Positions 1,487 through 60,320 of a stretch of DNA of 64,000 nucleotides are shown here, one piece after another (position 1 is the stretch's first letter; every line of letters begins with the position of its first letter). The stretch covers positions 95,511 to 159,510 of the forward strand of contig JAKAGM010000002.1 of assembly GCA_021815445.1 (NCBI GenBank), given 5' to 3'. The translations under genes were made by a program, and so were the position numbers. The notes beneath the pieces are model-generated. The model saw only the letters and a program-made list of their open reading frames with translations. It was not told where the DNA came from and searched no databases. The stretch comes from a bacterium. Its GTDB lineage: Bacteria; Patescibacteriota; Patescibacteriia; UBA10025.

Positions 1487-1603
1487 CCCCGGCGATGGCC
1501 TACTTTCCCAACGAGCTAAGCTCGAAGTATCATCGGCGCTGGCAGGCTTAACGACCGAGTTCGGAATGGGATCGGGTGTGGCTCTGCCGCTTATATCACC
1601 AGG
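1487..1603 (-). rRNA. rrf: 5S ribosomal RNA
   Basis: Reverse complement aligns along its length with bacterial 5S (e.g. ...CCGAACTCGGTCGTTAAGCC..., ...CCTGGTGATATAAGCGGCAGAGCCACACCCGATCCCATTCCGAAC...). Confidence 0.85.
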
Positions 1604-1942
1604 GTTCTGAGACTGTTTACAGGAATGTAAAGGTAATGTGTTTGTGAAGAGCGTATCTTCTGTGAATACGGTTAAATACTCACGCTCTATTAGTACTCCT
1701 CCGCTTCACTCCTTACGGAGCTTCCACGTAGAGCCTATCAACCCAATAATCTCTTGGGGAGCTTACTGAAATGTAATCTTGAAGGAGGTTTCACGCTTAT
1801 ATGCTTTCAGCGTTTATCCTTGCCGAACGTCGCTACCGAGCAATGCCCCTGGTGGGACAACTCGTCGACGAGAGGTTCGTTCTTCCCGGTCCTCTCGTAC
1901 TAGGGAAGAGTCTTCTCACATTTCTACGCCCGCGACAGATAG

Positions 1943-1994
<52 letters not shown>

Positions 1995-2007
1995 TGGCGA
2001 ACAGCCA

Positions 2008-2038
<31 letters not shown>

Positions 2039-2225
2039 CGATGGGCCGACATCGAGGTGCCAAACCCCCTCGTCGATGTGGACTCTTGGAGGGGATCAGC
2101 CTGTTATCCCCGGAGTAGCTTTTATCCGATGAGCTTCCGCCGTCCTATTTCGTGGACATACTACCTGCTATCCCTTTTGCAAGGAACAACAAGTAATACG
2201 CCGCGTACGGTCGGATCACTAAGTT

Positions 2226-2256
<31 letters not shown>

Positions 2257-2852
2257 TGCAGTAAAGCTGGCTTGTGGCTTTGCCCTATCTCTCGCATTTC
2301 CATCGCGAGATAGCCAACCTTTGTAAACGCCTCCGTTACATTTTGGGAGGCGACCGCCCCAGTCAAACTACCCACCAGACACTGTCCGTTCCCCGGATTC
2401 ACGGGTGAACGTTAGTCATAAAACCATCTCAGCGTGGTATTCCATATTGCGACTCCACCCCATCCAAAGACAGGGTTTCATAGTCTCCCACGTATGCTCG
2501 GCAGAGAAAACTCTATGACAATGCCAAGTTGTAGTAAAGCTTCACGGGGTCTTTTCGTCTAGCCGCGGGTAACGAGCATCTTCACTCGTCTTGCAATTTC
2601 GCCGAGTCCCTCGTTGAGAGAGTTTTCAAGTCGTTATGCCATTCGTGCAGGTCGTAACTTACACGACAAGGAATTTCGCTACCTTAGGACGGTTATAGTT
2701 ACCGCCGGCGTTCGTCAGCGCTTCAGCTCGGAGCTTGCACCCCTCACCTTAACGTTCTGACACTGGCCAGGCATCAGCCCCTATACATCACCTTTCGGTT
2801 TAGCAGGGACCTGTGTTTTTGATAAACAGTCGCTTGAAATCGTTTGCTGTGT

Positions 2853-3156
2853 CCAGCACCACTTTCAGTTGCCAAGCGAATGTTGTATACGTCGATACAA
2901 TTCTTGCTTAGCTCTGCCATGTTGTTTCAATCTACGTTCCCGAAGTATGGCGTCTTGTTTATTGCCATACTGTTCGCAATAGACAAGCTGCCACGCGCCT
3001 GATTGACGGTTCGTTGACGTTTGATTGCCGCTGTTATGTTCCTGCAATCGTCGGTCAAGATTGTGTGTCAGGCCTATATATAACTCCTTACTTACTGAGT
3101 GTCTAATGACGTAGATGTTCCACATAGTATTTGCTCCTTAAACTGAAAGTGGTGCT
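2853..3156 (-). mobile_element. Insertion within 23S (helix 63 variable region): 18-bp inverted repeat stem enclosing a GIY-YIG ORF
   Basis: ccagcaccactttcagtt (2853-2870) and aactgaaagtggtgctgg (3139-3156) are perfect inverted repeats. Flanking sequence aligns to E. coli 23S about 1690 and about 1770, so the insert replaces a variable helix. Confidence 0.55.
2865..3125 (-). CDS. stand-alone GIY-YIG nuclease domain protein (86 aa, YhbQ/Slx1-URI-like) encoded inside 23S insertion
   Basis: N-terminus YVIRHSVSKELYIGLTHNLDRRLQEHNSG matches the GIY-(x10)-YIG...R...E...N signature. The ORF exactly fills the loop of the 18-bp stem. Confidence 0.6.
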   Translation of the reverse strand: MWNIYVIRHSVSKELYIGLTHNLDRRLQEHNSGNQTSTNRQSGAWQLVYCEQYGNKQDAILRERRLKQHGRAKQELYRRIQHSLGN

Positions 3157-4385
3157 GGAGGGCCATGTACCGAAGGTACGGCCGTTGTTTTGCCGAGTTC
3201 CTAAACGAGGGTTCTCTCGTACACCTTAGGCTTCTCGCCTCACCCACCTGTGTCGGTTTCCGGTACGGGTACTACACTGATAATGTCTTCAATCTTTTTC
3301 TAGGCACCACATTTTCGCAAATTGGTATTGCCTTGCGACGCCACCTTTTGCCATCCCCAGCTTTCGCTGAAAACAGCAACGCGCATAACCAGAACACGCC
3401 CGCAATAGCTTGATGCGTCAGAAAGAAGACTCAATGCAGTAGTGCTGGAATATTAACCAGCTGTCCATCGGCTACGCATGTTAAGCCTCACCTTAGGACC
3501 GACTAACCCTGGGTCGATTTGCGTTGCCCAGGAAACCTTGGGTTTTCGGTGGACGGGGTTCTCACCCGTCTTTTTGCTACTTATGCCAACATTCTCACTT
3601 CGAAGCGCTCCACCGCCTCTTGTCGAGACGACTTCATGGCACTTCGAACGCTCCTCTACCACTATCTCGATTCCGAAGAACCGAGATAATTCCCACGATC
3701 GGTACGAAACTTAGCCCCGGTACATTTTTGGTGCACAGAAGCTTGACTAGTGAGCTGTTACGCTTTCTTTAAAGGATGGCTGCTTCTAAGCCAACCTCCT
3801 AGTTGTCAGGACTTCTACACTGCCTTTTACACTTAGTTTCGATTTAGGGACCTTACGTTGGGATCTGGGCTGTTTCCCTTTTGACCGGTGAAGCTTTGAC
3901 CCCACGGTCTGACTCCCCAGATAGTCTGCATCGGCATTCGGAGTTTGGTTTAGTAAAGTAGGCTTACGCCATCTTCACCAATTCAGTGCTCTACCACCGA
4001 TGCGTAGTTACTGGAGGCTAGCCCTCAAGCTATTTCGAGGAGAACCAGCTATCGCCGAGCTCGATTGGAATTTCTCCGCTATCCACGGGTCATCCCCGCG
4101 TGTTGTACGGCGCGTGGGTTCGGACCTCCCCCGCCTTTTACGGCGGGTTCATCCTGCCCATGGATAGGTCGCACGGCTTCGGGTCTTGTCGACAGAATCA
4201 AGGCGCGCTATTAACGCTCGCTTTCACTGTGGCTATTCCCTTCTCGGGCTTCACCAAACTCTGTCGAACAAACTCGTTGGCTCATTCTTCAATAGGCACG
4301 CCGTCACCCGGCTTGCGCCGAGCTCCGACTCCTTGTAAGTATATGGTTTCAGATACTTTTCATCCCCCTCACCGGGGTGCTTTTT

Positions 4386-4416
<31 letters not shown>

Positions 4417-5317
4417 ATCACAAAACGTATTTAGCCTTGGGACGATAGTCGTCCCTGCTTCCCATAAAATTTCACGTGTTTCATGGTACTCGAGAGAAAT
4501 CATCGTAGCTCCCAATCCGTTTCGCTTACGGGACTGTCACCCTCTGTGGTAGAGCTTTCCAGCTCCTTCTGCTACGGACTGAAGAGTGCCTTCACCACCC
4601 CAGCTTGCGCCGGGACGGATAAGGAACTCCCTCTAGGTCTGCTACCTCGAATCTACAGGATTCGAACATAATTTCCTCATCAACGCCCTCTTTCATTGGG
4701 CCTGCACCCATATCCTGCATTGCTGCAGGAAGAGAAGAGAGTTTTGGCTGTTCCCCTTTCGCTCGCCACTACTTAGGGAATGGGCCAAATCACACATTGA
4801 TACCCTGTCTTTCGACAGGAGATCAAACGTGCAATCTGACATTTGTTTCTTTTCCTCTGGCTACTAAGATGTTTCAATTCACCAGGTAGTCTTCACTGTG
4901 CCTATGAATTCAGCACAGGATGGCTGGCTCTTCGCCAGTCGGGTTTCCCCATTCGGACATCTCCGGATCAAAGGTTGGTTGCCACCTCCCCGAAGCTTAT
5001 CGCAGGCTCCTACGTCCTTCATCGTCGTTTTGTGTCAAGGCATCCACCATATACCCTTAAACGAGTATTTAACCGTAATCGCAAATGATACGGTTCTTAC
5101 TATTTGATGCTCATCACTTATGTTACCTCTACTACTACATATTCAGTTGTTAACGTTCATTCCTTGAGCAGAAGTAGAAAGATGAAACTGTTTTCATGCT
5201 TCTATTTCGGTTCTAGGGTTGGAAAGGGCACTCCTTTACCTACAGGACCCTTCGACTTCGCCCCGTGTGACTGTGGGGCTCCGCTCAGGGCAACTCGCTG
5301 ACGCTCGTTGAGTATGA

Positions 5318-17492: not shown

Positions 17493-19265
17493 CTATTGGA
17501 TTGCAATACTATAGAGTCCTTTATTTGTTCCAATGAAAAGTGTCTGAGAAGCATCGTGAAAAGAAATACCACTTATCACATCATTAGATCCAAGTTTCAC
17601 GGGTAAATTAATTTTATTCCAACTATCGCTGCTGTTTTTTGATACATACACATTATTGTCGAAATCCGTCGCGAAGATCATGCTTTCATTCGATCGACTC
17701 GCCGTTATTTGATATACATGGAATCCGGTATTTTTTATCACCCACGTCTTTCCCATATCTGCACTCCTAAAGAACCGATCAATCCCTGAAGCCGGGTTAA
17801 CTCCATACAGTAGGCCATTGGTCACAATCAAATCCGTCGGGACATACTGCTTTTTAGAGTCATCGCCTTGCAAGATAACATCCCATGTTTTCCCCCCATC
17901 AAGGGATTTATTCAAGTTATTACATACGGCATAAACAATATCTGGGTTCTTTTGGTCCACAACGATATTTGAATAAGAACATTGGTTCGCCTTATTATTA
18001 GCCGCTCCGAGGGATTCATAGACTTTATTCCAATTTTTGCCGCCATCTTGAGACTGGTACAGGTAATAATCAGTTTTTACACCATCATATCCACTGCCGG
18101 ATTTTTTCCAAGTTTCAAATTTTGTCGTCGCGTATGCTACTTTTCCAGTGCTACCCAAACTCAAATTTGTCGTTTGCAGTCCATCTATAATCACCGGCTG
18201 CCAATTTACCCCTCCATCCACACTTTCGATGATTGTATTAATATCCCACTCGCCAGAATCCTTTGGGGGTGTAAACATCCCCCCTACCGCGTAAAGATGG
18301 TCTGAATTATCGGGATCAATCACGAGGTTGTCAAAAGATAAATTCACTGGAACGTTATTAACATTTACTCTTTTCCAGTTCGCTCCGCTGTCGGTGCTTT
18401 TGTAGAGGCAATGGCCCTCTCGTATGCCGGCGTACATCAAAGCCGGCTTTACACGAGTAGTAAAAACAGACTGAGCACTCTCTCCTTCAAATGCGACAGT
18501 TGTCATTGAGACGCTCTCCGGGATGTCGCTACAGGTAGCAATGTCGGAAGCAACTTTCTCAAGCTGGTCAAGGTACACTAGAACATCTTCTTGAGAACTT
18601 ATGCTTTTCCAGGTAGCACCACTATCAGTAGTTCTATACAAACATCCATCGCCAAAGCCAGTCTGGGCGTACATCTCAGTTTGGGCTTTATCAACAGCTA
18701 GGACTGGGCCCAATTGGAAGTTGGCAGGTAACTGAGCGCTATTCAGCTGACTGCTATTAACCAAGGTAGGTAATCCACTGCATGTCGCGATCAGATTTTG
18801 CACTTCTAGAGTAGTCTCTTCTCTCATCTTAGCTGCAAAATCTGCCAATTCAGTTTCAGTGGCGTCCGGCTTGGTAAGCTTATATTTTTGAACATTTGCT
18901 GCAACATACTCCTCCAAAGTTATTTGTCCACTTTGAGTATTAACCGCCGGTGAGTTCGATATACTATTCTTTATACTATACGGAGTACTTTTTTTTGTGC
19001 CATTCCACCACCAGTAGAATCCTCCACCAGCCAAAATCAAAACTAACAATCCACAACCTAAGATTAATTTGTAATTATATTTCTTAACCTGGTTCTCCTG
19101 AAACATACCCAGAGCTGCATCAATTTCACCCATCTGCCAGCCGACTTGGGCTAAGGTTTTTCGTATCTCATCCTTGCCCACTCCTTGTTCCAAGGAGTTT
19201 TTAATGTAGCCTACTAGCTCTTGATTTGGCATAAAATAACGAGTTAATTTGTGAATGAATTTCAT
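17493..19265 (-). CDS. membrane-anchored BNR/Asp-box repeat (sialidase-like beta-propeller) protein
   Basis: At least six SxDxGxTW Asp-box repeats (TTDSGATWKS, STDSGANWKR, SVDGGVNWQP, SQDGGKNWNK, SLDGGKTWDV, SADMGKTWVI); N-terminal soluble domain followed by a TM helix. Confidence 0.75.
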   Translation of the reverse strand: MKFIHKLTRYFMPNQELVGYIKNSLEQGVGKDEIRKTLAQVGWQMGEIDAALGMFQENQVKKYNYKLILGCGLLVLILAGGGFYWWWNGTKKSTPYSIKNSISNSPAVNTQSGQITLEEYVAANVQKYKLTKPDATETELADFAAKMREETTLEVQNLIATCSGLPTLVNSSQLNSAQLPANFQLGPVLAVDKAQTEMYAQTGFGDGCLYRTTDSGATWKSISSQEDVLVYLDQLEKVASDIATCSDIPESVSMTTVAFEGESAQSVFTTRVKPALMYAGIREGHCLYKSTDSGANWKRVNVNNVPVNLSFDNLVIDPDNSDHLYAVGGMFTPPKDSGEWDINTIIESVDGGVNWQPVIIDGLQTTNLSLGSTGKVAYATTKFETWKKSGSGYDGVKTDYYLYQSQDGGKNWNKVYESLGAANNKANQCSYSNIVVDQKNPDIVYAVCNNLNKSLDGGKTWDVILQGDDSKKQYVPTDLIVTNGLLYGVNPASGIDRFFRSADMGKTWVIKNTGFHVYQITASRSNESMIFATDFDNNVYVSKNSSDSWNKINLPVKLGSNDVISGISFHDASQTLFIGTNKGLYSIAIQ

Positions 19266-19266
19266 A

Positions 19267-19338
19267 TGCCCTCGACAGGAATCGAACCTGTATCCCAGGC
19301 TTCGGAGGCCTGTGCACTATCCTTTGTGCTACGAGGAC
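19267..19338 (-). tRNA. tRNA-Arg (anticodon CCG)
   Basis: Manual cloverleaf fold: acceptor GTCCTCG/CGAGGGC, D stem GCAC/GTGC, anticodon stem CAGGC/GCCTG with loop CTCCGAA, T arm ACAGG-TTCGATT-CCTGT; no encoded CCA. Confidence 0.75.
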
Positions 19339-19595
19339 ATGCTAGATGGGTTGTCTACATACTGTCTAATAAATTCCTTCTTTACGGAGGAACTGCGCTT
19401 AATCTGATACTCTCGCCATCGTGCCTTTTCCCGTGTTGGATACTCTTCGAATCCAATCAGTTTCCATGGAACTTTCCGTTGTGTTGTCTGGACGTGCCCT
19501 TCATTGTGCCGGACTAACCTTGCCCGAATATTTCCCGTCTGCCCAATGTAGAAAGTGTTATCTTTCTGACTCTGAAGTAGGTATACGTAGTACAT
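19329..19595 (-). CDS. stand-alone GIY-YIG nuclease domain protein (88 aa) overlapping the 5' end of tRNA-Arg
   Basis: YYVYLLQSQKDNTFYIGQTGNIRARLVRHNEG = GIY-YIG signature; stop codon TAG lies inside the tRNA acceptor/D region (GTCCTCGTAGCAC). Confidence 0.65.
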   Translation of the reverse strand: MYYVYLLQSQKDNTFYIGQTGNIRARLVRHNEGHVQTTQRKVPWKLIGFEEYPTREKARWREYQIKRSSSVKKEFIRQYVDNPSSMSS

Positions 19596-19603
19596 AAACT
19601 TTC

Positions 19604-19679
19604 GGCTTCGGCCTCCGGCCCAGAGGGCCGTACGGCCCGGAGGGAGGCCTGTGCACTATCCTTTGTGCTACGAGGACAG
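19604..19679 (-). repeat. Partial duplicate of tRNA-Arg 5' half (positions 1 to about 43) interrupted by a 33-nt GC-rich palindromic insert in the anticodon loop
   Basis: 35-nt exact repeat of 19305-19339 (ggaggcctgtgcactatcctttgtgctacgaggaca) plus ggcttc beyond a 33-nt insert containing the perfect palindrome GGGCCGTACGGCCC. Confidence 0.6.
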
Positions 19680-19687
19680 GTTGGCTA

Positions 19688-20416
19688 TCATTGTTGACAC
19701 TGCTCCGTTTTTAACAATTCGGCCATTCTTTCAACATCTTCCGGCTTGCCAAAATCCATCCAACTGTCTTTGATGTGTTCAACGCGCACCTTGCCCCGCT
19801 GAGCGAGCGCGGAAAGCGCGTCGGTAATCTCATATTCGCCGCGCGGGGACAATCCGACGTTATGGATTGCCGTGAAAATGTCCGGTGTAAATTTATACAA
19901 GCTTGAGTTGATTACGTTGCCGACATGCTCCTGCGATTTCTCCGCTATCCGTTCCAAAATATTCTCTTTATTCACAACGAGAACGCCGTGCTGTTCGGGA
20001 TGGTCGTGGCGCAAACCCCCGACGTAGCAGAGCTCGTCGTTATGAGCCATCATTACCCGCAGATCGCTTTGCGCATAGTAATTATCTCCCGCAATGGAGA
20101 TAAACTGTTTGTCCGAGAGATACTCTTCGGCGCATATCAAGGGGCATGCAGTTCCGTATTTATCAGGTAAAGCGCCGAATTGGTCGATAAGGGTGATAGG
20201 GTATTCCGGGTGCTGGGCGGCAAACCGCTCTATGTTCTCCTTCTTATACCCGACGACCAAGTAGATTTTTTTAAAACCGGCTTTCATTACATTATCAAGC
20301 AGGTAATGCAAAAAAGGCCTGCCCTGCACGTCAATCATGTGCTTGGGCATATTCTGGCTGAGATGCTTCATCCGCGTGCCTTTGCCGCCTGCGGAAATAA
20401 GAATGTCAGTAATCAT
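19688..20416 (-). CDS. sugar-phosphate nucleotidyltransferase (NTP-sugar pyrophosphorylase family)
   Basis: N-terminal ISAGGKGTRM (GGxGTR nucleotide-binding motif). Confidence 0.75.
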   Translation of the reverse strand: MITDILISAGGKGTRMKHLSQNMPKHMIDVQGRPFLHYLLDNVMKAGFKKIYLVVGYKKENIERFAAQHPEYPITLIDQFGALPDKYGTACPLICAEEYLSDKQFISIAGDNYYAQSDLRVMMAHNDELCYVGGLRHDHPEQHGVLVVNKENILERIAEKSQEHVGNVINSSLYKFTPDIFTAIHNVGLSPRGEYEITDALSALAQRGKVRVEHIKDSWMDFGKPEDVERMAELLKTEQCQQ

Positions 20417-55311: not shown

Positions 55312-55395
55312 GCTGGAGTGGCGGAATTGGCATACGCGCTAGCCTTAGGAGCTAGTGGGAGCAATCCCTTGAGAGTTCGAGTCTCTCCTCCAGCA
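55312..55395 (+). tRNA. tRNA-Leu (anticodon TAG), long variable arm
   Basis: Acceptor GCTGGAG/CTCCAGC+A, anticodon arm CTAGC-CTTAGGA-GCTAG, variable arm GGGAGCAATCCC, T arm GAGAG-TTCGAGT-CTCTC. Confidence 0.8.
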
Positions 55396-59895: not shown

Positions 59896-60165
59896 CTTGT
59901 CCGGAATTTGATTTTTGCTGCGATAGGCATATACTTACTTTAGTTAAGTACTTTGACTATCCGGGAGGGGGTTCACGGCCCTCTTAGTTGGTGAAGCGAG
60001 CGTTTAAAGGCTCTTTGTCCACGGTGACACCTCCAGCATTTTTGTTCGGATGGGGAACTTTAAGCGGCTCAGCGCAGGAATCACGGATGATTCCTGCGCT
60101 TTTTCTTATGGACCTTGACTGATTTTATCTACGTGGTATCATCTATCTATTACTTTTTCTTATAA

Positions 60166-60320
60166 GGAGCGGAGCGAGGGAATTGGCCCAAAGACCTCCC
60201 GGCAGCCTGTCCCACAAGGGATGTACGGTGCCACGTCCAACCTCTTCATCGGCAAGGGGAAGATAAGAAGAATGCAGAGTCTTCTTATCAACGATAAGAA
60301 TTCTTTTATATATTATTAAC
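60166..60320 (+). promoter_or_regulatory. SAM-I (S-box) riboswitch with terminator/antiterminator expression platform controlling metK
   Basis: TTCTTATAAGGAGCGGAGCGAGGGAATTGGCCCAAAGACCTCCCGGCAGCC ... GGTGCC ... GAAGATAAGAAG matches S-box consensus. Antiterminator GATAAGAAGA/TCTTCTTATC competes with P1 and with terminator TCTTATC-aac-GATAAGA then TTCTTTT. Confidence 0.75.

Follow-up and report, generated by a model that had tools for sequence, protein, structure and literature searches.

How does a small nuclease gene come to lie between two copies of one transfer RNA (tRNA) gene, the first copy cut short and interrupted by a palindrome and the second intact? The locus raising this question lies on the minus strand of a 64,000-nt stretch of Patescibacteriota DNA (GenBank assembly GCA_021815445.1, contig JAKAGM010000002.1, positions 95,511 to 159,510), here called the window, in which an 88-aa open reading frame (ORF) for a GIY-YIG protein is welded to a tRNA-Arg(CCG) gene. 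We think it likely that the window copy is a resident selfish cassette of the homing type, living in tRNA genes of Patescibacteria. Cassettes of this kind interrupt a tRNA gene and duplicate part of it, so that one intact tRNA remains, they are polymorphic and under selection, and each lineage keeps to a tRNA type. The window copy appears to be an ordinary member of a widespread and undescribed family of such cassettes. A literature search found no description of tRNA-linked small GIY-YIG cassettes, most subscription journals lying outside its coverage.

Architecture of the locus

In the direction of transcription, the locus in the window consists of the following features.

19688, minus strand: stop codon of an NTP-transferase gene (Pfam)
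19687-19680, minus strand: 8 nt between the NTP-transferase stop and the tRNA fragment
19643..19679, minus strand: displaced 5' tRNA-Arg(CCG) fragment, part 1, TGTCCTCGTAGCACAAAGGATAGTGCACAGGCCTCC, tRNA positions -1 to 35 (BLAST, MAFFT)
19610..19642, minus strand: GC-rich hairpin module of 33 nt, CTCCGGGCCGTACGGCCCTCTGGGCCGGAGGCC, in the anticodon loop of the fragment (single copy in the window)
19604..19609, minus strand: resumed fragment GAAGCC, tRNA positions 36-41 (41/41 identity overall)
19596..19603, minus strand: spacer of 8 nt, GAAAGTTT, from the end of tRNA homology to the ATG (conserved; counterpart at locus L117 GAAAGTCTT)
19329..19595, minus strand: 88-aa stand-alone GIY-YIG ORF, UPF0213/Slx1-like (PF01541, E 9e-16)
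19267..19338, minus strand: intact tRNA-Arg(CCG), 3' of the ORF (Rfam, 65.5 bits)

Part 1 of the fragment covers the 5' strand of the acceptor stem, the D arm, the 5' strand of the anticodon stem and the loop nucleotides CTCC. Aligned with the intact gene (19679-19643 against 19338-19303), it gives 35 of 35 identical nucleotides with BLAST (E 4e-15) and 36 identical columns with MAFFT, and all 41 tRNA positions present in the complete fragment are identical to the intact gene. An exact repeat of 36 nt in 64 kb cannot be a product of chance, and neither can the ORF. The fragment begins 8-9 nt past the NTP-transferase stop, where the single tRNA of an empty-site relative begins. The inserted DNA thus amounts to 340 bp, made up of the hairpin, tRNA positions 36-41, the spacer, the ORF and a second copy of tRNA positions 1-35.

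An earlier reading of the locus, made from the sequence only, had its coordinates and sequence right to the base. It had placed the last three codons of the ORF and the stop inside the intact tRNA; strictly, these are two full codons, one base of the third and the TAG. The ORF ends ATG TCC TCG TAG, with the final G of that ATG as tRNA position 1 and the stop as U8-A9-G10. This numbering follows the Rfam register, which is the standard one (U8, A9, G10; discriminator A73); the ARAGORN bounds, 19339-19266, are 1 nt off at each end. At its other side, the intact tRNA ends 1 nt from the first ATG of the next ORF, which encodes a BNR-repeat protein (17493-19265). The window gene does not encode the terminal CCA, which several relatives do. 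A promoter scan returned weak consensus matches only and was not used as evidence. The GGAGG in the 3' arm of the hairpin was considered as a Shine-Dalgarno sequence and rejected, as it lies about 12 to 38 nt from the ATG, a spacing that varies and is often too wide.

A family of tRNA-linked cassettes

We retrieved 80 metagenome loci with an alignment of the ten closest proteins, an alignment of 21 sequences being too divergent to serve as query, and analysed them with ARAGORN and scripts. Individual loci carry L numbers. Relatives clustered at 90% identity formed 66 clusters, and a tRNA lies within about 130 nt of the ORF in 42 of these, co-oriented with it in every case (42/42). The tRNA overlaps the ORF or directly follows it in 32 of the 66 clusters and lies just upstream in ten, compared to an adjacency of about 1-2% that the density of tRNAs in these sequences would lead one to expect. 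The tRNAs involved are of twelve amino-acid types (Arg, Asp, Ala, Gln, Glu, Pro, Ile, Val, Ser, His, Cys and Trp).

Among the 31 lineages with the tRNA downstream of the ORF, 30 carry a hairpin-interrupted 5' tRNA fragment of at least 20 nt located 0-40 nt before the ATG, and in 24 of those 30 the fragment is at least 95% identical to the neighboring tRNA. The stop codon of the ORF lies inside the tRNA in 20 of the 31 lineages, seven times at position 10, which makes the weld of ORF to tRNA a trait of the family. Hence, the proposal that the window locus is the footprint of an insertion into a tRNA gene that left an intact tRNA behind is borne out by the same architecture in dozens of independent loci and tRNA types. 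The remaining arrangement is a mirror image, the upstream class, in which an intact tRNA and a terminator are followed by the ORF, a hairpin, a 3' tRNA fragment and a second terminator.

Lineages are largely faithful to their target. The tRNA type is the same as that of the nearest protein neighbor in 23 of 27 cases, and among the closest relatives of the window ORF, all those for which a tRNA was detected are located at tRNA-Arg(CCG). The first close homologue with available DNA (L001, 62% identity) consists of a fragment with CTCTGGGCCGGAGGCC in its anticodon loop, the ORF and an intact tRNA-Arg(CCG), and additionally has a 3' tRNA fragment bearing the same motif. Other homologues follow the same plan at tRNA-Arg, tRNA-Pro, tRNA-Glu and, in L023, a tRNA cut by the end of the contig. 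Fragments with a hairpin also occur without an ORF upstream of intact tRNAs (L075, L106, L065, L102), and such solo hairpin-bearing fragments are the decay stage expected of selfish endonuclease genes.

Tandem arrays, in which the whole unit of fragment, hairpin and ORF occurs two or more times, are found at L024 (1903-2400), L063, L070 and L067, which indicates repeated insertion or unequal recombination. At 50% identity, the family comprises 5,495 clusters at E <= 1e-3 and 279 clusters at E <= 1e-10. The viral contigs searched yielded four distant relatives only, three of them without a tRNA in the 3 kb covered and one (L120) with two tRNAs about 300 nt downstream of a partial match. Hence, there is no sign among the viral contigs searched that the family is phage-borne.

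Presence, absence and relics at the orthologous locus

Three relatives of the window share its gene order RuvA-FemAB-NTP-transferase, and relatives with a name are Kerfeldbacteria or Parcubacteria. As the sequence-only reading had proposed, we compared their tRNA-Arg loci, which proved to be empty in one, occupied by the same cassette in another, and marked by relics only in the third. The closest relative (L116; identity of NTP-transferase, FemAB and RuvA 72/57/58%) has one clean tRNA-Arg(CCG) 6 nt after the NTP-transferase stop, with neither ORF nor fragment. In L117 (65/50/54%), the same cassette is present with a hairpin identical at 30 of 33 positions, an ORF 64% identical to the window ORF, and an extra hairpin nest in the D arm. 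The third state is found in L110-L115 (65/52/54%), where an intact tRNA lies beside the NTP-transferase gene and a pseudo-tRNA beside the BNR gene; a 3' fragment is present and the ORF is missing. The locus therefore shows the presence/absence polymorphism by which free-standing homing endonuclease genes are recognized. The cassette is old, as judged by the 64% protein identity with the ORF of L117, yet polymorphic among relatives rather than anciently fixed.

The relics at L110 might record more than one invasion. The pseudo-tRNA retains acceptor ends of the window type (CTCGTAGC...CTGTCGAGGGCA) followed by the same 'tatgaaatt' flank, and its interior is replaced by hairpins. Within 3236-3545 of L110, as also in L111-L115, the pseudo-tRNA is filled with A-A'-A hairpins of the form GCGGGG/CCCCGC/GCGGGG, and a stray 3' fragment is present. 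Live and dead tRNA copies are reversed between the two genomes. In L110, the copy proximal to the NTP-transferase gene is alive and the copy proximal to the BNR gene is dead, with the opposite in the window, and the live tRNA of L110 differs from that of the window in the acceptor stem. The reciprocal pattern and the different acceptor stem fit serial invasions in which the tRNA of an incoming cassette replaced that of the resident, and we infer that tRNA alleles may have been replaced in this way at the L110 locus.

The NTP-transferase of the window is 100% identical to that in GCA_027341205.1, and in this public assembly the GIY-YIG ORF (L108; DAIENG010000002.1, 3322-3588) was not called as a gene, which is why the window ORF has no exact match on record. 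A contig assembled from short reads of the same species (the end of L109) stops within the 36-nt repeat. It is probable that annotation misses such cassettes and that they break up assemblies.

Movement and selection

Mobility is indicated by L027 and L042, which are 99.5% identical over 408 bp and have unrelated flanks. The shared block runs from 3 nt before the fragment to the CCA of the tRNA. This block points to a recent move of one lineage, the pair being the only one so close and consisting of metagenome contigs. Homology likewise ends exactly at the 3' end of the tRNA in L089/L090, L081/L087 and L093/L101. The ORF is under purifying selection in relatives, with dN/dS of 0.05-0.27 in nine informative pairs.

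The GIY-YIG protein

The ORF encodes a member of the GIY-YIG superfamily according to its Pfam match (PF01541, as above), and its catalytic residues are intact, with Y5, Y16-I-G18, R26 and E62 invariant in 21 homologues and H30/N31 nearly so. The AlphaFold2 model (pLDDT 93) has the beta-beta-alpha-beta-alpha topology, and Foldseek matched GIY-YIG structures only. By sequence, the best matches are the UPF0213 structures 1ZG2 (E 7e-13) and 1YWL (E 5e-11), with Slx1 at E 3e-4. By fold, 1ZG2 matches with E 2e-4 and Slx1 with a TM score of 0.64-0.67 at 28-33% identity; the UPF0213 and Slx1 matches span E 2e-4 to 9e-3, compared to 0.35-0.5 for I-TevI. The protein belongs to the UPF0213/Slx1-like subgroup, given its domain-only architecture, a length within about 80-110 aa, and its closest sequence and fold.

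The hairpin module

The insert in the window has the architecture X-A-l1-A'-l2-A-X', with the segments CTCC-GGGCC-GTAC-GGCCC-TCT-GGGCC-GGAG-GCC, and contains the perfect 14-nt palindrome GGGCCGTACGGCCC. Exactly one match to this architecture exists in the 64-kb window. In 222 kb of ORF-centered loci, the architecture finder returned 55 GC-rich matches compared to 0-5 in shuffled sequences. Judged as a repeat of the REP (repetitive extragenic palindrome) or MITE (miniature inverted-repeat transposable element) type, for which many dispersed copies are expected, the module thus has one copy in the window and 55 in the loci, some of them solo, nested or in genes. Matches peak 42-62 nt upstream of the ATG and occur in both orientations.

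Pairing in the module is maintained despite sequence change. Segment A occurs as GGCTC, GGGCC, GGCCC, GGGTC, GACCC, GCTCC, GATTC and other variants, and A' compensates. The loops l1 and l2, which the finder leaves unconstrained, are complementary and covary, with double changes in 12 of 21 distinct sequences. The hairpin is much better conserved than the sequence around it, being identical at 30 of 33 positions among the window, L117 and L042, where synonymous sites of the ORF are saturated (proportion of synonymous differences, pS, 0.81). Since the hairpin persists even as the fragment around it stays near-identical to a hairpin-free tRNA, selection likely acts on the hairpin. Fold energies are unremarkable for such GC-rich sequence (RNA z = -1.9, DNA z = -1.4), so the evidence that the hairpin matters is comparative. 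Taken as a whole, these comparisons indicate that the hairpin is a conserved, modular and selected component of the cassette.

Insert sizes are quantized at 16, 32/33 and 64 nt. The 29-mer of the module can also be read as P-V-U-V'-U'-V-P'. In this reading, a 13-nt hairpin (CTCCG-NNN-CGGAG) holds within its triloop a second, inverted copy of itself, and the loop triplet is repeated. This nested reading would explain the three size classes, the 16-nt form of L001, the tandems of L044 and the hairpin-within-hairpin forms of L082 and L105. In the Pro, Val, Ala, Asp and Glu lineages, the anticodon arm or part of the D arm gives way to a hairpin of a second family, TCCCGA-loop-TCGGGA. Insertion points coincide with cloverleaf loops or junctions (6/7, 14/15, 18/19, 22/23 and 33-36). 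On reading the sequences, no consistent target-site duplication was seen at hairpin insertions in tRNAs; a 3-nt repeat holds solely for the nesting of hairpin in hairpin.

The sequence-only reading had seen a possible cleavage-site mimic in the hairpin. The stem CTCCG found in the Arg(CCG) lineage repeats anticodon-loop positions 32-36, and the last 7 nt of the insert, GGAGGCC, are the reverse complement of tRNA positions 29-35, so that the predicted fold pairs tRNA sequence with insert sequence. The notion that the hairpin stem is a copy of the target's anticodon loop fails at the Ile(TAT) locus L038, which has an Arg-type hairpin. The resemblance would be historical at best and is no requirement. 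A scan of 185,579 species genomes with the hairpin motif CTCYGGGCCGGAGGCCGAAG gave 13 chance-like matches, mostly in high-GC genomes and none near a tRNA.

Hairpin modules of 30-33 nt were also observed in frame in a reverse transcriptase (RT)-like gene at L050 (1895-1923 and 2485-2514) and at L049 and L051. The two in-frame modules of L050 translate as ASGSTSRRLGE and GPRPYGAGGPEG, and the RT reading frame there is split into two ORFs.

A proposed mechanism and its limits

The architecture suggests how a cassette might persist in an essential gene. Duplication of the 5' part means that a complete tRNA gene is re-formed immediately after the ORF, at no cost to the host. On either side of the ORF lies tRNA sequence, which is the sole DNA conserved between genomes and could serve as portable homology arms. 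We suggest that a break in an unoccupied tRNA-Arg(CCG) gene, repaired by homologous recombination from an occupied copy, would copy the cassette in. Repair of this kind would transfer everything between the arms and predicts homology boundaries at the tRNA ends, as observed. Alternatively, a circular excision product might integrate by a single crossover, which would predict both the downstream architecture and the mirror-image upstream architecture and, by the reverse reaction, a clean empty site. Loss could proceed by recombination between the two direct repeats, removing the cassette precisely and restoring a single tRNA.

The break most likely comes from the 88-aa protein, which would probably recognize DNA structure over long sequence; its Slx1-like nature and the absence of a binding domain make structure recognition possible. 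The hairpin would most likely either make the displaced tRNA copy unfit as target or substrate, or constitute the putative binding or cleavage site of the nuclease itself. Having no stop codon of its own, the ORF runs into the tRNA, which suggests that the two may be co-transcribed. Cleavage by RNase P would then strip the ORF of its stop codon and possibly limit expression of the nuclease.

Several points weigh against a homing-type cassette at the window locus. We infer the homing step from architecture and distribution. The ORFs of the window and L117 are about as similar (64%) as neighboring housekeeping genes (50-65%), so the cassette looks old here and may now be mostly vertically inherited. 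The 88 aa comprise the catalytic domain only, without a DNA-binding module for a long (14-40 bp) recognition site, which weakens the case for a classical homing endonuclease and leaves untouched the case for a gene that works like one. Should recognition lie wholly in the tRNA, the tRNA beside the ORF stays a target, and the immunity of the occupied allele is unexplained. At L001, L030 and L032, which have both 5' and 3' fragments, the acceptor strands are non-complementary, which misfits a single insertion. For the same reason, a model in which one element splits one tRNA, with the hairpins as its ends, was rejected.

A bolder extension, to which we give a minor chance, is that the hairpin and its Slx1-like mini-nuclease form a new mobile system that recognizes not sequence but folded DNA, such as hairpin loops or the cloverleaf into which the displaced strand of a tRNA gene can fold. 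If true, it would explain why structured-RNA genes (tRNA, RNase P RNA, 23S rRNA) are colonized, why hairpins sit at cloverleaf loops, how the 16-nt nesting quanta arise, and how a domain of 88 aa finds its target. Horizontal replacement of tRNA alleles would be a by-product, as the reciprocal pattern of L110 and the window suggests.

Alternative explanations

The alternative closest to a homing-type cassette, overlapping with it in all but the engine, takes the hairpin as the primary mobile agent. A palindromic element of 13/16/32 nt would invade the loops of hairpin-forming DNA with the GIY-YIG protein as its nuclease or 'transposase', and the tRNA fragments and the position of the ORF would be consequences of loop-targeted cutting and repair. 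Quantized sizes, insertion at cloverleaf loops, the nested P-V-P' hairpin with its tandem (L044) and nested (L082, L105) forms, the covariation of l1 and l2, the occurrence in both orientations and in frame in the RT-like gene, the excess of GC-rich copies in the loci over shuffles, and the presence of structure-specific Slx1 nucleases among the nearest solved structures all speak for such an engine. A single copy in the 64-kb window is not what a dispersed repeat would leave in this genome, though, and the tRNA insertion sites show no clean target-site duplication. The clustering 42-62 nt upstream of the ORF fits a fixed part of a cassette equally well, and we know of no GIY-YIG enzyme that catalyzes transposition. 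We regard the hairpin as engine as rather unlikely. An immobile, domesticated gene, vertically inherited with its tRNA and serving the host, for example in DNA repair at highly transcribed tRNA genes, with fragment and hairpin as a cis-regulatory leader, seems improbable. It would account for the cassette shared by the window and L117 with an ORF diverging like its neighbors, for strong purifying selection on the ORF, for a hairpin kept at 30 of 33 positions across saturated synonymous sites, and for a constant distance between hairpin and ATG, and UPF0213 proteins are widespread in ordinary bacteria. Speaking against domestication are the empty site of the closest relative and the bare relics of another, a 99.5% identical unit in unrelated flanks, the spread over 12 tRNA types and insertions in protein genes, rRNA and RNase P RNA, and the tandem copies and ORF-less relics.

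Two simpler accounts of the upstream copy can be given hardly any credence. Bacterial genomes do contain tandemly duplicated tRNA genes, and the upstream copy has the truncated look of a pseudogene, but a decayed duplicate unrelated to the ORF lying between the copies would not recur as fragment, hairpin, ORF and tRNA in 30 of 31 independent lineages at many tRNA types, and decay is incompatible with 41/41 identity plus a conserved 33-nt insert. The sequence-only reading had itself named such a decayed tandem tRNA as an objection. It had also likened the hairpin to a mini-intron. The insert indeed lies in the anticodon loop near 35/36, a site enriched in group I introns (PMC13011429), and as an intron of the bulge-helix-bulge or group I type, or within a tRNA half assembled in trans, it would have a ready explanation. 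Such an intron or split tRNA is at odds with a fragment that lacks the entire 3' half of the tRNA, none being found downstream in the window. When folded, the upstream copy forms no bulge-helix-bulge, and group I and II intron families had no match in 18800-20200, even with the threshold relaxed to E <= 10. Between the fragment and the ATG there are only 8 nt, and between the ORF and the tRNA there is no gap. Hairpins of the same family occur in D loops, at the 6/7 junction, in non-tRNA contexts beside the ORF and in frame in a protein gene, and where 5' and 3' fragments coexist in relatives their acceptor strands are non-complementary. The comparison with integrative elements or homing-endonuclease cassettes, made in the same reading, holds for the homing part. 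The integrase part does not: an integrase-mediated integrative element is not supported, the GIY-YIG ORF being the sole ORF between the repeats, the duplicated part the 5' half, and the insertion 340 bp.

Relation to known systems

By analogy, the logic of the cassette matches that of known free-standing homing genes carrying a replacement piece of their target, as in fungal mitochondria and phages. Many endonuclease insertions in fungal mitochondria leave duplicated gene fragments, and the atp6/ORF360 element of Allomyces macrogynus mitochondria reportedly adjoins 'double-hairpin elements'. As in free-standing GIY-YIG homing genes, the ORF sits in an essential gene, brings a partial replacement copy and leaves a displaced fragment, with presence/absence polymorphism and GC-rich hairpin elements nearby. 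In contrast to these, the cassette targets a bacterial tRNA gene of about 75 bp, which limits the arms to 35-45 nt, the enzyme is a bare catalytic domain of 88 aa, the ORF is welded to the tRNA through the U8-A9-G10 stop, and a fixed, quantized hairpin module lies inside the displaced fragment. The cassettes are set apart by these four traits, namely an intronless bacterial tRNA target, a minimal enzyme, a tRNA-welded ORF and a quantized hairpin module.

UPF0213 (YhbQ-like) proteins provide the best sequence and structure matches and share the size and domain-only architecture of the window protein; to our knowledge, they have no assigned role in mobile elements. Slx1 is a structure-specific endonuclease that needs Slx4 and has a RING domain, and the modeled likeness suggests that the window protein might also cleave in a structure-specific manner. 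REP elements and BIMEs (bacterial interspersed mosaic elements) are associated with RAYT (HUH/Y1) transposases, and Rickettsia palindromic elements insert in frame. The hairpin module resembles both in combining short GC-rich palindromes with a dedicated nuclease gene, nested or tandem copies and in-frame insertion; compared to REP/RAYT systems, it has a GIY-YIG enzyme, a single copy in the 64-kb window, a quantum of 16 nt and the A-A'-A architecture.

With I-TevI and the Seg enzymes, the window protein shares the GIY-YIG fold and, as proposed here, a selfish spread by double-strand-break repair, whereas it has no ribozyme intron, linker or DNA-binding domain and is closer to UPF0213/Slx1. There is a precedent for tRNA regions in SegB, a Seg GIY-YIG enzyme of phage T4 that reportedly acts in the T4 tRNA gene cluster (PMC13096335). 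The tyrosine-integrase islands and prophages that target tRNAs likewise regenerate an intact gene by partial duplication. Unlike them, the cassette has no integrase, no short att core at its junction and 340 bp rather than kilobases, and it duplicates the 5' half of the tRNA (the 3' half in the mirror class). In the candidate phyla radiation (CPR)/Patescibacteria, rRNA genes contain insertion sequences encoding LAGLIDADG or GIY-YIG proteins (PMC11270868), and tRNA genes of Patescibacteria contain group I introns at position 35/36 (PMC13011429). Nothing is said in either paper of tRNA-linked GIY-YIG ORFs, tRNA fragments or the hairpin. These insertions and introns share with the cassette the phylum, selfish ORFs in structured-RNA genes and the anticodon loop as a hot spot. 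The rRNA insert is removed at the RNA level, whereas nothing is spliced here and function is kept by partial duplication.

The cassettes would represent a third way into an essential RNA gene, requiring neither intron nor integrase and relying on partial duplication with the gene itself as homology arms. They would explain puzzling tRNA fragments and uncalled small ORFs in genomes of Patescibacteria, in which the duplication also breaks assemblies, and they suggest horizontal swapping of tRNA alleles. An 88-aa nuclease with a conserved DNA/RNA hairpin partner of about 30 nt makes specificity directly measurable and possibly useful. The question of the hairpin and a structure-specific nuclease is the part that could prove really new.

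Other insertion sites

Members of the family also occur outside tRNA genes. At L045 (763-1043) and L046 (1501-1781), the ORF is inserted in a gene that resembles, by eye, a Y1 (IS200/RAYT-like) transposase, and the TAG of the hairpin motif CCGTAGG serves as the stop codon of the ORF, comparable to the TAG of the tRNA in tRNA-linked copies. About 24 contigs (L002-L009, L047) have the ORF inside a diversity-generating retroelement, between the target gene and bAvd/RT. At these loci (e.g. L002 1244-1272, 1306-1560 and 2163-2191), a hairpin lies upstream of the ORF and a flipped copy, with A and A' swapped, about 860 nt downstream before the RT gene. At L103, the ORF (564-821) and the 5' end of a bacterial RNase P RNA gene (790-1172; Rfam 228 bits) overlap, and upstream of the ORF there is a stretch complementary to this 5' end. 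Hence, other structured-RNA genes are targets of the family too.

The window itself contains a second GIY-YIG ORF of 86 aa (2865-3125, minus strand), 32% identical to the first and located inside the 23S rRNA gene (1669-5073, minus strand). A 17-bp inverted repeat (TCCAGCACCACTTTCAG / CTGAAAGTGGTGCTGGA) brackets it, as in an intervening sequence excised by RNase III. The 23S gene measures 3405 nt compared to the 2925-nt model and may contain further insertions. Ordinary features of the window, unrelated to the cassette, include a 5S rRNA gene directly downstream of the 23S gene (1487-1603, minus strand), a tRNA-Leu(TAG) gene (55312-55395, plus strand) and an S-adenosylmethionine (SAM) riboswitch (60157-60269, plus strand; 56.7 bits).

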